From Botryllus schlosseri (taxonomy: Eukaryota), in contig CM119372.1 of the NCBI GenBank assembly GCA_051294905.1, forward strand, positions 29,142,001 through 29,206,000: 64,000 bases of DNA. Reading direction: 5' to 3'. The translations under genes and the position numbers were made by a program. Positions 30,908 to 36,899 of the stretch are shown one piece after another. Under the pieces are notes generated by a model. The model was not told the DNA's origin, searched no databases, and saw only the letters and a program-made list of their open reading frames with translations. The stretch's first letter is position 1. Each line of letters begins with the position of its first letter.

Positions 30908-33900
30908 CTATTTTAGTTTTTCATGCAATGTCACTGCTGTAATATACGTCTTTCGGTTATTCCGTCGAATAACTTCCCTAAGATAATTTGTTCCAGTGAC
31001 TCTCCGACATTTCGCATAACATAAATACACACATCCTACCATTGCCGTTACGCTAACCGCAAAAATCAAGGCATAATTGTTAAGTGATTCTTCTAAATCC
31101 TTCCTATTATTAATACCAATAATAGTTCTACTTACTGTATATCCTTGCTCTATTTCCAGCAGTTTGTGTAATTCTCTATAGAAATCAAATGTAATTCGGT
31201 CCGGTCTGTCATGTTTGGCAGTAGGTAAGGTATGCGGTATATTGAGTGTAGTTGTTCCTTCTCCTTTGACAACGGGCGTAATTGATGAAAGTGCACTATT
31301 GGAAGTCCTCTTCCAACTTCTGATCACATCATTTTTACTTACTGATGTGGGTTCGTTCTGGCCGTACCTTGGTGAAAGCAAGGATGTTGATTTGGTTCTT
31401 ACCTGTGGGTCTTGTTCACGAGTTTGATCAAATGCTTTGGTGGTAGAGTGAGCCTTGTTGGTGACGAAATTTTGGTGCATACCAACTGTCGGTGCTACTT
31501 GTGTTGTATCAAACAACATATTGAAATGCGTTATTGGCGGTGTTGTGTCCATGAGTTGATTTTCGTAACGACTCGATTGTATATAAAACTCAGGTGTCTG
31601 CGTAATCTGGGGTGTTTTCTTTGTGGGCACTGGTATGGAGCCTAGCATTTCACCGTTTTTTGTGGGTATTTGATAAGTCATGGTATTCCATTGTAACCGT
31701 GCGTTTGCAGTGATCTCCATTGGTGTAATCGTTGTTAACTCTCTTTCGGAAAAGGTGACTCCCGTCGTAGCAATGCCAATGCTTTTCTGAGCGTCCAACT
31801 CTGTTGATATAGCCGTAGATGGTTCCACAGTTGTGAAAATATTTGTGGGATTCGTCCTGCGTCTTTCTTGTTCACTCACAGTTTTCACTGTAGTTAAGAA
31901 TGCAGTAATAGATGCAGTCGGTCTTGGGCTGGTGTTATCTTCGCGTGAGGAATGCTCAGTCGTCGATATGGCTGGAAGTGGGGTCGATGAAGTCGTTCCG
32001 GAAGTAATAATGGCCAATGTCAACCCTTTAGTATATGCTGTGATCGCATTAGTTGTTAATGTGGACGCAATACTCTCCGAAGTGTATGCAGACGTTCGTG
32101 GCGTAGAAGTTGGAGTACCAGTTGTTAACTTAATTGTGTATTGACTCCCTGTAGCCGCGATTGGAGTTTCAGTCGTTGGTAACGCAATTGTAGTTTCAAA
32201 GATATTTGTGGAAATCGTAGTGTCGGCAACGGGTATGGGCTTCCTTCTTAGCGAACTGTCATATTCCACGTCTTCGTTATAATAGTCATAGTAGTAATTT
32301 CCAGGCTCTTGAAAACTAGTATAGTTGTCATATTTGTCATAGCTGAATCCCTCATACTCTTCAATATTATCATAATTATAGCGTTTAATGTCGTAATGAT
32401 CCGTCCTTCTTACACCTTCCTCAGTGTTTGTGATGGTTTCCACCGTTCTCATGGTTGGTTGTTGACTAATTTCAATAGGAGTGAAATTATATAATGTACC
32501 AGACTCACTGTTGGGGACCGCCGTTCGAGTGGTCCCTTCATGACTGACAGGCCTTGTGGGTATTACTTTTGCAATACTTGATGACCTTGCGGAGTTTGTT
32601 TTCATTTTGATATTCTCCTTATAGGCATAAGGTGTATATACCAATATGCCCGCACATATTATAGCTTTGTAGGCAACGCTAGGTCGGAATAGCCGTATAT
32701 CATCATGGAGTTGCGCCTCTCTCAGTTTGCGCGTCGACATGTAGCTTAATAGCCCCTCGTTTATCCTACTCAGTTTCCGTTGCGTCAATGCTGATCCTAG
32801 TTCCTGACTTAAGGAATCCATTTCGGCTATTGTTATTGGTCTCTCCAGTCTCTCCAGATTTTTTCTCTTTTTATGTATGGGAAGAGACAACTGGCGTAAA
32901 CGCCTTTTCGTTACTTCTACATAAAACATTCCTAGGCGGGCTAGATAATAGTCAATATTTCTTGTGTTTTGTCCATTGTTTTGAAATGATGCAGTCAGAA
33001 CAAAATTGCCTAATCTCCCAGGTTGTTTACAATGGGATAGATTTTTGGGCCACGCTTTGAGCGAAGATTTATGACCCGAAGGTCTCAGGGATGCAATCAA
33101 CAATCGACCATTTCTATGATCTGCATATACGGGCTGATTTTTGTATGGATCATATAACACTTCCTTGAAGGATAAGGCCGTCTTTAAATTTCCTATTGTA
33201 TTTCGACATACTTTTCTATTCCTCTTACGTTCACATTCCAGGCTGCCTTGCAACAATGTGGGAAAATTATTTGCCCCCATTATCCGTCGAGTTTCATTAT
33301 TCAGATGTTCACGAAGGGCATAAACCCTTAGTCTAGACCATGTATGACCATCAAAGATTGCTGGCCTTTCTCTGGGACCTGTTTCGTTGCGAGCTTTCAG
33401 CCAAATTATATCGTGATGTAGCCTGGGTAGCTTGACTCCCACTGGCCATTGACTGTAAGAATTGGTTTCCTGCATTCTTGTTCCTGGTCCTCTAATACTG
33501 TTATCTATTTCCATGAACACAAAGTCTCTGGACAGTGTATTCACTGCCCGATTGTCTGGATAAAATACACATCCTATACATTGCATCCCGCCAATATTTT
33601 CGAGTACGCATACACTAAATTCGCCTTTGTTGACCTTCCACCCCTCGATTCCTTCTGAATGCTGTTGACACCTTGCTGTTACTGTTGCATATTGTGCCAA
33701 GAGGTTCATTACTGATAACTTGTAAACTGTCAACAGCTGGTGTATAGTAACTTCTGGGGTCGTATTAGGAGAGATTATTCGATGAATAGCTCTCGGTACG
33801 GCCATAGGAACACGTGTTTTTTGTCCTACAACATACTTCCATGTATGTATTGATCCAAAGTCACTTTTCCGACGATATATTGTGGTCCTGGTCAGGGCTA

Positions 33901-34400: not shown

Positions 34401-36899
34401 CTACATCCTTGTCGATTTGGCTGTTTTCAAGTAGGTAGGCACCGATGATATGTACATTGTCAATTGAGTGTTCGCGTTCCGCCTTTGTACCTTGGACTTT
34501 AACTTAGGACAGCAGAAACTGCTATAACGACAGCAGCAAAACAGGATGATCCCAGCCCCCAATATCAAAATCACTGGAATTAACACGGACCCCAGGCCGG
34601 AGAAAATACCACTCAATCCTTTACTAAATATACCACCGACCGCGCCAAGTCCATCTTGTAGTAGATCTCCTGTGCTATCTGCTATCGTTTTTATCAAACT
34701 GCCGGCATTTTGTGATATTTCTTCTATTGTCTGGCCAAAGTTGTTCATGAATTCTTTACCCCCAACAAATGCGAAGGGCTTCACTGTAATATTCTCATAA
34801 CGCCAGGTAGAAATATTCATGTATACGCTTTTATTAACCTCTTCTCTCCAAACATGCAGTCCCAGATCCACACTATGTTGAGCTCGATCTAGACCGATAC
34901 GGTTAGCACGCAGTTCCACACCAATGTCATTAGTCTCGTTGATATAAGCGTCCCTGTAAGCCGTTAGCTGCTGAGCATGTTCCTTTATCCGTAATGTCCC
35001 TTCTCGGATTTTTGTAAGATATATCTTGCTGGAATCAAATATCAGCTTGCCGGTTAGATTTGCTAGTTCATCCAAGACCAACCGGTCAATAGCCAATTCA
35101 GCTTCACTCATTTCCTTATAGTTTTGAAAAGAGGTCAGGGAGGCTGTGGCTTGTCTTATTATCATCTGTCGATTCCTTTCTATGTACTTTTCCAATAGTA
35201 CTAGGCGTTTATTTACTAGTGATGACCTCACTTCCATGGTGGCCACTGTTCGATCCAATTTTTGTTGTTGAGCCATCTGGAGCCGAGAAAGCTCGTTAAT
35301 CTTCCTCCCTAGTGCAATGGACCTCTGCGTGGCTTGTGTCATTCTGTCATTGATTTGTCTGCTCAGATCTACCGTTTCCTCATGCAATTGGGATGAAACT
35401 GACGCCACAATGGTTATTGCGGACACCAGGCCGAATACAAGACACAATAATCCGGACAGAAACCTTTTACGTCTTTGACGTGGGCCCTGTCTGGCCCTAT
35501 CCCTCGATACCAATTCGCCTTTTATTTCTATTGGACCCCCTGGTAAACGTGGTCGGTTTTGTTCCGGATCAAAATGAATATGGTCCCAAAAGGCTGCTTT
35601 TAAAGCAGGTCCACCTACGGGGTCCCGGCAAATATCCTGGTTACGTGTTATTCTTCTTTTACACGCCATGTCTGATTCAGTTAGGGAGGAAAATCTTAAC
35701 CATAGAGGCATGATATCTGTCTTAAGTGGCACACCATCATAAAAGTTATCATACAATCCAAATCGTTGTTCAAGGTTGTTCAATCCATCCAGGTTCGGAA
35801 AAGACGGAAATATCCATTTAACTCTGCGGGGAAAATTTGTCATTGGTAGATCGCCCCACAAGGTGACATTTGTTCCTGGCCAAAAATTACATGAGTGAGC
35901 CACATTGTAGGCCTCCCATACATATTTTGGCATTCTCCAGAATCGGTTCTTGGGCCATCGGTTTTCATAAAATTCTTGATCGACCCATCCTTTCATGGTA
36001 CCAAAGGCCCCCCTACATGGTATTACAGGCCGATGCTTCGCTTCCCATCTATTATAATATTTCGTCACTACTTCTTGGATGATTATATCTGCCTTGTTTG
36101 GTTCAAGGGCCGAGATTACTCCCTTAATTTCGCATCTCGTACAGATTCCGATCGATACCACGTTGACCCACCGCGGGGAGCCATCTTTTACTTTATGCCA
36201 GCATTGTGTAAAGCTATTGCTACTTGCATTGTACTTGTTTAATTCACCCATTTTTTCCATATCCTGATCCCTCATTTGATCTTGGCGACACGAAGCTTCG
36301 ACAGCTGAATACCTTTCAAAGACTCGCAGAATAATCAATTTAAATTTGGTCATCGCAAACATAGAGTAATTCCTTCCAAGTTCCCTAAACAAGTACTCGT
36401 GTCCAGACCAAAACCAGCGAATCCTATAAGGGCCTATAGGTCGGATGAACGTATTTGTTTGATTAAGAACCTTATAGGATAATTTGGGCGTAATTTGACC
36501 CAAACGCCGTTGACAGAGGCAGGTGCGTTCAAATTCTTGTACGCTTGACCAATACCGACCATGTGGGAATTCCATTTGTTGTAATGAAAATCGCTCAGCC
36601 ACTACGTAGCCAAATGACTTACTATAAAACAACTCTGGCCGTCTATATACATGTCGCTCCGCCGTTTTATTGAAGATGCTCAATAAGTGATAGTCCTCCC
36701 ACTGTGTCTCGTTTAAAGTCACCCAATCCTTAGGTAGGGGTCCTTGAAGCTCACCCAGTGTACCCTGAGTGAAAAACCGTGCTCTACTCGTTATAGAATC
36801 TGTGTGTCCGTGCATGCCTTCCGCCGTCGTATGCAGCAACAAATCAGATGTACAAATGATACCAACAAGGATAGACAGAGGATAAGGAAGGCCGTCCAT
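34401..36899 (-). CDS. env: Env-like class I fusion glycoprotein
   Basis: Signal peptide, furin site RQRRKR (35463-35480) followed directly by hydrophobic FLSGLLCLVFGLVSAITIVASV, heptad-like region, C-terminal TM with CCC, and many N-x-S/T sites. Confidence 0.85.
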   Translation of the reverse strand: MDGLPYPLSILVGIICTSDLLLHTTAEGMHGHTDSITSRARFFTQGTLGELQGPLPKDWVTLNETQWEDYHLLSIFNKTAERHVYRRPELFYSKSFGYVVAERFSLQQMEFPHGRYWSSVQEFERTCLCQRRLGQITPKLSYKVLNQTNTFIRPIGPYRIRWFWSGHEYLFRELGRNYSMFAMTKFKLIILRVFERYSAVEASCRQDQMRDQDMEKMGELNKYNASSNSFTQCWHKVKDGSPRWVNVVSIGICTRCEIKGVISALEPNKADIIIQEVVTKYYNRWEAKHRPVIPCRGAFGTMKGWVDQEFYENRWPKNRFWRMPKYVWEAYNVAHSCNFWPGTNVTLWGDLPMTNFPRRVKWIFPSFPNLDGLNNLEQRFGLYDNFYDGVPLKTDIMPLWLRFSSLTESDMACKRRITRNQDICRDPVGGPALKAAFWDHIHFDPEQNRPRLPGGPIEIKGELVSRDRARQGPRQRRKRFLSGLLCLVFGLVSAITIVASVSSQLHEETVDLSRQINDRMTQATQRSIALGRKINELSRLQMAQQQKLDRTVATMEVRSSLVNKRLVLLEKYIERNRQMIIRQATASLTSFQNYKEMSEAELAIDRLVLDELANLTGKLIFDSSKIYLTKIREGTLRIKEHAQQLTAYRDAYINETNDIGVELRANRIGLDRAQHSVDLGLHVWREEVNKSVYMNISTWRYENITVKPFAFVGGKEFMNNFGQTIEEISQNAGSLIKTIADSTGDLLQDGLGAVGGIFSKGLSGIFSGLGSVLIPVILILGAGIILFCCCRYSSFCCPKLKSKVQRRNANTQLTMYISSVPTYLKTAKSTRM

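Follow-up and report, generated by a model that had tools for sequence, protein, structure and literature searches.

Can a two-protein entry system arise within a mobile element by duplication of a single envelope gene? This question is raised by a stretch of 64,000 nucleotides from Botryllus schlosseri (contig CM119372.1, positions 29,142,001 to 29,206,000 of the forward strand; "the window", to which all coordinates refer), in which a large element carries two neighboring envelope (env) genes. An initial annotation had interpreted their products as paralogous glycoproteins, one of the fusion type and the other a surface-subunit-like duplicate on a mucin stalk. The duplication turned out to be real and well supported, and the functions of the two proteins are what we infer from it.

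Common origin of the two env genes

The gene pair and the parts of the larger protein are located as follows (aa, amino acids).

34401-36899, minus strand: fusogen-type env gene P0001, 832 aa
30908-34312, minus strand: env paralog P0002, 1134 aa, with signal-like N-terminus, head, fusion-subunit remnant, stalk, and anchor
33116-34177, minus strand: P0002 head (aa 46-399), a homolog of the surface subunit of env
32609-32707, minus strand: P0002 aa 536-568, remnant of the fusion-subunit loop motif (5.1 bits, colinear, weak)
31184-32620, minus strand: P0002 Thr/Ser/Pro-rich stalk, aa 565-1043 (about 480 aa), defined by composition
31007-31084, minus strand: P0002 predicted membrane anchor, aa 1077-1102, from hydropathy (one anchor)

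The two genes are arranged head to tail on the same strand with a gap of 88 bp, and both frames are open over their full length. BLASTP aligned the two proteins in two colinear segments, aa 96-206 of P0001 with aa 88-217 of P0002 (E 3e-9) and aa 403-450 with aa 350-394 (E 4e-5). The N-terminal halves gave a local score of 111, which was reached by none of 2000 shuffles (maximum 72). The three shared blocks quoted in the initial annotation were all found, and its claim of paralogy was confirmed; the outcome that would have spoken against it, an insignificant N-terminal similarity, was not observed. The identity of the heads is 18-25%, and the AlphaFold2 models of both heads contain the identical succession of strands and helices. 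As judged from the sequences, P0001 and P0002 are paralogs that originated from an env duplication.

The extent of the duplication was analyzed with block profiles that were built from fusogen-type members of the env family only, with 200 shuffles for each profile. P0002 scored 82.0 bits with the N-terminal block (best shuffle 7.2) and 31.9 bits with the block preceding the cleavage site (best shuffle 1.3). The score of the loop-motif remnant was equaled by 0 of 200 shuffles (maximum 4.2), and the motif is also present in a second stalked protein, P0031, which is described below. No match was obtained in P0002 with the profile of the fusion peptide and N-heptad (51 of 200 shuffles scored as high) or with the C-heptad profile, and the family alignment agreed with the profile scores on these remnants. 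Because profiles and alignment match the head and the loop motif of the fusion subunit, and not the fusion peptide and the C-heptad, the entire env gene was copied rather than the surface subunit alone. The copy then acquired a stalk and lost the C-heptad, the fusion peptide, and the cleavage site. The description of P0002 as a surface-subunit-like duplicate was correct with regard to the homology, but it was an understatement, as weak homology continues past the position of the cleavage site into the fusion subunit.

Pyrimidine-rich stretches ending with CAG are found just upstream of both genes (36960-36985 and 34335-34360, minus strand). They resemble splice acceptors, which suggests that env and its paralog might be translated from separate spliced mRNAs. 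A micro-ORF (open reading frame) of 46 codons, which encodes a hydrophobic peptide with CCC-IRRRK, overlaps the start of env (36791-36931, minus strand).

Contigs of three runs, X1 and X5 of organism A and X12 of organism B, were compared with the window over 21001-41000. Variant copies, mostly 80-99% alike, cover both env genes and the intervening DNA, with depth in 30/30, 30/30, and 29/30 bins for X1, X5, and X12, respectively. The number of contig pieces spanning both genes was 0 in these three runs. In run X5, intergenic DNA was covered as evenly as the genes, and the run was treated as DNA. In one variant copy of run X1, a single base is lost and another is gained ten bases away (33588-33598), and the frame of the paralog head stays open.

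A predicted fusogen and its disarmed copy

The features of P0001 that bear on membrane fusion are the following.

35382-35474, minus strand: furin-type site at aa 476-479, then a segment resembling a fusion peptide (aa 480-506), from sequence motif and hydropathy
34626-35411, minus strand: heptad region, aa 497-758, predicted trimer of hairpins, from structure prediction
34506-34619, minus strand: predicted membrane anchor, aa 761-798, from hydropathy

P0001 contains two overlapping basic sites of the form R-x-K/R-R at aa 474 and 476 (RQRR/RRKR over aa 474-479), directly followed by a hydrophobic segment (aa 478-506), and it has 11 N-glycosylation sequons. On the basis of sequence only, it has the layout of a type I membrane fusion protein, in which a hydrophobic fusion peptide comes after a protease site, and the basic cleavage site is kept across the env family alignment. 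Modeling of three copies of aa 497-758 resulted in a score of 0.69, compared with 0.00 for the best of three controls. Of the solved pairs, 21/30 pass the mark applied to this score, whereas 0/23 single chains do so (17/29 and 0/30, respectively, for eukaryotes). The contact agreement between runs was at least 39%, and the predicted local distance difference test (pLDDT) value was at least 67. In the model, aa 498-615 form a parallel heptad core, onto which aa 620-670 and 692-709 pack back. These predictions support a post-fusion trimer of hairpins for P0001, as in class I fusogens.

The class I-like trimer expected by the initial annotation was thus recovered by prediction, but the fold searches gave no named family. 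The AlphaFold2 models of P0001 and P0002 had no match at E<=0.001, and the VIA fold-search rows were generic helices. The lack of a fold match is not evidence of a new fold, because the heads were modeled only within longer chains and the mean pLDDT was low, 62.9 for P0001 and 54.2 for P0002 (aa 27-570). PDB sequence searches with env yielded nothing significant. Among the atlas features for P0001, coronavirus spike ranked first (0.91, 195 shared), which is taken as a lead only; the atlas matches for P0002 were below 0.9 and mixed.

The claim that only the 832-aa protein combines a furin site with a fusion-peptide-like segment held. P0002 has no R-x-K/R-R motif, and it lacks the cleavage site, the fusion peptide, and the C-heptad that characterize a class I fusion protein. 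At the position of the fusion peptide, the best 19-residue hydropathy values were 2.49, 2.10, and 2.08 in three fusogen-type proteins, in contrast to 0.12 in P0002 and 0.67 in P0031. P0002 has a short hydrophobic N-terminal stretch and 10 sequons. The Thr-rich stalk was likewise verified: Thr accounts for 26% of the residues over aa 695-900, and an acidic stretch of the stalk (aa 637-686) contains 13 Tyr in 50 residues. The AlphaFold2 model places helices at about aa 453-534, and its confidence over the remnant is below 50.

A profile search of 1.84 billion representatives retrieved 41 relatives of env at E<=0.001. None of those inspected (20 and P0003) carried a name; their sources were Logan, ENA, and JGI. 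In the full-length fusogen-type members, the basic site is retained together with the hydrophobic segment and the heptads. None of the 35 aligned env members matched an F or gB Pfam family at E<=0.01. One of the 35 matched Foamy_virus_ENV below the cut-off; this match is confined to 60 residues at the anchor and was set aside. A word-indexed search found one relative of env and none of P0002, and env relatives were absent from viral_contigs and metagenome_contigs. In three further members of the family, P0008, P0013, and P0047, the head is extended by 50-160 residues; P0008 also contains an EGF-like segment inside a long N-terminal extension. From their sequences, these extra head segments could be alternative solutions for attachment.

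P0031 (722 aa) was the best match of P0002 among the 44 proteins compared (E 3e-23, aa 7-564, 22% identity). It has no furin motif and no fusion peptide, and it contains a Ser/Thr region and an anchor. The loop remnant is still present (5.4 bits), and the N-heptad profile matches weakly (7.8 bits). The longest contig is 5305 bp for P0031 as well as for the fusogen-type protein P0006, and the two genes together need about 4.5 kb. Because of the equal length of these contigs, adjacency of the two genes is likely, and thus the pairing of a fusogen with a stalked protein probably recurs on a shared 5.3-kb contig. The same clue is valid for a split env whose two halves, P0014 and P0043, are also joined by an equal longest contig (246134 bp).

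Possible roles of the stalked paralog

With a probability of about 0.5, P0001 is a furin-activated trimeric class I-like fusogen, and P0002 is a non-fusing surface partner that likely serves attachment. Both proteins would be displayed on particles or on the producing cells. The stalk of P0002, probably O-glycosylated, would raise the head above the glycocalyx and tether the target membrane, and P0001 would then refold and drive fusion. Paramyxoviruses and pneumoviruses have separate attachment and fusion glycoproteins; G of respiratory syncytial virus has mucin-like regions, and the attachment proteins G, H, and HN are type II proteins unrelated to F. The division of labor proposed here would be similar, but it would stem from the duplication of one gene. 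The likeness consists of separate fusion and Thr/Ser-rich partner proteins, whereas the viral partner is of type II and unrelated to F, and P0001 and P0002 are both of type I and paralogous. As a further difference from paramyxovirus F, the furin site of P0001 (aa 479 of 832) precedes a subunit that is mostly helical, and no F fold was matched.

By analogy, the nearest functional counterpart of P0002 may be Ac23 of group I alphabaculoviruses. According to the available text of PMC4864199, this F-like protein is a fusion-protein homolog without a furin site that has lost fusion and is an accessory protein on budded virus. P0002 would likewise be a non-fusing fusion-protein homolog without a furin site. 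However, the working fusogen of these viruses, GP64, is unrelated to Ac23 as far as that text goes, whereas here the predicted working fusogen is the adjoining paralog, and the dead copy has acquired a stalk of mucin-like character. A comparison at the sequence level showed no link between Ac23 and this env.

Several observations weigh against an attachment role of P0002 or weaken its basis. P0001 keeps its own complete surface subunit and may need no partner. No receptor-binding feature was identified in P0002, and the head span between the anchors of the alignment is shorter in the paralog (265 aa) than in P0001 (316 aa). The trimer run imposed three copies, which departs from the calibration of the tool, and recall of solved six-helix bundles could explain the pass. 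P0031 is the only stalked paralog found besides P0002; its stalk is much shorter and without the Tyr-rich stretch, and its link to P0006 derives from the equal contig size of 5305 bp. In the tree, P0002 and P0031 were grouped weakly (68/59) and both had long branches, and therefore a single origin of the two is not established. In RNA run X21, of which about 6 in 100 was read, the depth over both genes was 0-0.28. Lastly, the variants listed for the two genes speak for their maintenance, since the synonymous share is 7/11 in env, 4/7 in the paralog head, and 0/5 in the paralog stalk and tail, as would be expected if the head were constrained and the stalk drifting; however, these 23 rows are a small selected set from the best-supported 40 of 3045.

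Alternatively, P0002 might stay on the carrier cell as an interference factor or decoy, where it would occupy the receptor and block re-entry of the element, or absorb host defense molecules. This would be in accordance with the entire head that the fusogen would bind with and that P0002 keeps, and the element has further potentially host-modulating genes (IAP, E2, LRR). In the text available from PMC11019853, FeLIX and other truncated retroviral Envs are described as non-fusing relatives of Env that act as entry cofactors (for FeLV-T) or, in the case of defective Envs, as restriction factors. However, these truncated Envs are soluble and, according to the same excerpt, FeLIX stems from separate endogenous loci, whereas P0002 is anchored, has a long stalk, and is encoded in the same element as the fusogen. 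In addition, a common receptor is less certain with heads that are 18-25% identical. Because P0002 keeps its anchor and stalk, its sequence favors a surface-displayed partner over a secreted decoy, and we regard the decoy explanation as unlikely.

An explanation that we hold to be equally improbable is co-assembly of P0002 with the fusogen via the head and the helical remnant, as a folding helper, a prefusion clamp, or a glycan shield. Paralogs of homo-oligomers often retain shared interfaces, and both stalked paralogs still have the helices (aa ~453-534 of P0002) and the loop motif (aa 536-568). On the other hand, the stalk of about 480 aa would keep the heads far apart unless it is flexible, and the helical remnant is modeled with a confidence below 50.

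The carrier element

Both env genes are part of a larger element, which the initial annotation of the pair did not mention. Its ends and its other genes are located as follows.

3041-3048, no strand: 8-bp target-site duplication, left copy, same 8-mer at both ends
3049-3071, plus strand: left terminal inverted repeat, starts with GG; agrees with the reverse-complemented right end at 18 of the first 23 positions
3320-6937, minus strand: pol with protease-like motif (read by eye), reverse transcriptase, RNase H, and Tpt1/KptA, no integrase domain, overlaps the gag end (Pfam RVT_1, RT_RNaseH, PTS_2-RNA)
6868-9714, minus strand: gag-like ORF, 948 aa, CCHC knuckle (Pfam zf-CCHC, E 5e-4, just under the cut-off)
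10023-10040, minus strand: candidate tRNA primer-binding site upstream of gag, 18 nt, starts with TGG, single occurrence
12467-26501, minus strand: accessory gene block with UBC E2, IAP, second IS1595-like ORF, LRR protein, and small duplicated ORFs
13585-14040, minus strand: UBC E2
15786-17537, minus strand: IAP with 3 BIR and RING
18870-19805, minus strand: second IS1595-like ORF, 39% identical to the terminal transposase, shorter C-terminus
20426-21475, minus strand: LRR protein
37035-38006, minus strand: Merlin/IS1595-type transposase, 323 aa, D156, D219, E258 (Pfam DDE_Tnp_IS1595, E 9e-10)
38243-38265, minus strand: right terminal inverted repeat, inverted match to the left end
38266-38273, no strand: 8-bp target-site duplication, right copy, same 8-mer as on the left

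The element comprises 35,217 bp with ends at 3049 and 38265, both of which start with GG. Among 133 candidate pairs of 8-bp direct repeats, one had inverted ends matching at 15 of 20 positions, and the next best reached 10/20; the chance of a 15/20 match is about 0.001-0.006 after correction. Between 3320 and 38006, every long ORF is read from the minus strand, and the ORF coverage is 63%, compared with 1.5% outside. In reading direction, the order is IS1595-like transposase, env, env paralog, small ORFs, LRR protein, second IS1595-like ORF, IAP, E2, gag, and pol. A PDB sequence search with the transposase yielded nothing significant. Small ORFs of unknown kind occur in duplicate pairs (14786/12990 and 21561/17833, within 12467-22130, minus strand) beside the IAP, E2, and LRR cargo.

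The order of gag followed by protease, reverse transcriptase, and RNase H is the same as in Ty3/gypsy elements and retroviruses, and a similar ORF precedes pol at two further loci, L001 and L002. The nearest solved chains of the reverse transcriptase were 8r0s (6e-19), Pr125Pol (1e-14), and Ty3 (5e-12), and its placement is derived from these chains only; we take 8r0s to be of a caulimovirus and Pr125Pol of a foamy virus. A retroviral integrase is absent from pol, which stops after Tpt1 here, in P0046, and in L001. The Tpt1/KptA domain (RNA 2'-phosphotransferase-like; 3320-3830, minus strand) is found at the end of pol in the place of integrase, and the same combination recurs in P0046 (45% identity) and L001 (48%). 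The literature search found no paper with the combination of Tpt1 and pol, and no pol relatives were present in viral_contigs. The overlap of gag and pol of about 70 nt contains an A AAA AAC run (6868-6937, minus strand), which by its sequence is likely a -1 frameshift site; similar overlaps are present in L001 and L002. The candidate primer-binding site may match tRNA-Ile; no tRNA genes matching the pattern were found. Between the last accessory ORF and this site, a TATA-like box (12255) and an AATAAA (12176) form a layout like that of a single long terminal repeat (LTR; 12255-12171, minus strand); such motifs are frequent in AT-rich DNA.

No direct repeat that could represent LTRs was found inside the target duplications. 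Direct repeats of about 850 bp (369-1595 and 38542-40050, 81-87% identical) were rejected as LTRs, as they lie outside the target duplications; each is split by a different small insert. KolobokP, considered for these repeats from the available portion of PMC9587614, was dropped. The host flank contains tandem arrays at 47664-49416 (~80 bp), 55699-57205 (~203 bp), and 59317-59799 (~42 bp).

In the integrated copy, env is upstream of gag. When the ends are joined, the genes follow the retroviral order, except that the transposase takes the position of integrase: primer site, gag, pol, transposase, env, paralog, and accessory genes. The element would be reverse-transcribed, would have a circular intermediate, and would be integrated by its own transposase at its inverted ends. 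Tentatively, and at somewhat less than even odds, we regard it as a large enveloped virus of marine invertebrates in its integrated form. This virus would be of a new kind, with reverse transcription, replication through circular DNA, integration by an IS1595-type transposase, and two-protein entry based on a duplicated new class I fusogen family. The carrier is possibly a new kind, and its status depends on proof of reverse transcription. That P0002 is just a tolerated duplicate without an entry role, and the retroviral genes are passengers of a large cargo-carrying DNA transposon, is quite improbable: the DNA-transposon ends, the lack of an LTR pair, the other duplicates (the two IS1595-like ORFs and two pairs of small ORFs), and the expression not seen in the part of run X21 that was read are countered by a 3.4-kb frame that is still open at about 20% identity to its paralog, by P0031 as a relative of the same build, and by the recurrence of the integrase-less pol with terminal Tpt1 in P0046 and L001 at 45-48% identity.

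Known elements share only parts of this organization. Ty3/gypsy errantiviruses and Tor of Oikopleura, as characterized in the accessible sections of PMC13524379 and PMC4402516, contain an integrase, LTRs, and one env of the F or gB type. Common features are gag, protease, reverse transcriptase, RNase H, and env in invertebrate genomes, and F-type Envs also have a furin site and a fusion peptide. In contrast, the present element has no integrase and no LTR pair, env is upstream of gag, and there are two env paralogs that match neither the F nor the gB Pfam family. Merlin/IS1595 transposons have, in the extract of PMC8101967, a DDE_Tnp_IS1595 transposase, GG ends, an 8-bp target duplication, and imperfect terminal inverted repeats of 24-462 bp. 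The element has the D-D-E transposase, the inverted repeats starting with GG, and the 8-bp duplication, and its repeats of about 23 bp are at the short edge of that range. However, the transposons described there encode a transposase only, whereas the element has 35 kb with gag, pol, two env, and accessory genes. HERV-V ENVV1/ENVV2 are tandem env genes as well, but the portion of PMC2567338 at hand describes host-retained copies of old proviruses and not a diverged pair of fusogen and non-fusogen within one mobile element.

The literature search found no description of the gene pair or the element, within a reach that excluded most subscription papers and supplements, including the element tables of PMC13524379. 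Those tables could hold relatives, although elements with a truncated integrase were removed according to the text available. With gag, pol, and env and with Merlin-type ends and a transposase instead of LTRs and integrase, the element fits no class in the literature compared, and it is further from known kinds than the gene pair. To our knowledge, where known viruses use one protein for attachment and another for fusion, the two are encoded by unrelated genes. A duplicated env of which one copy was disarmed and stalked would show directly how one-protein entry becomes two-protein entry, and the fusogen and its stalked copy are open to side-by-side testing. Because the env family matches no Pfam family and no solved fold, it may add a branch to the class I fusogens.

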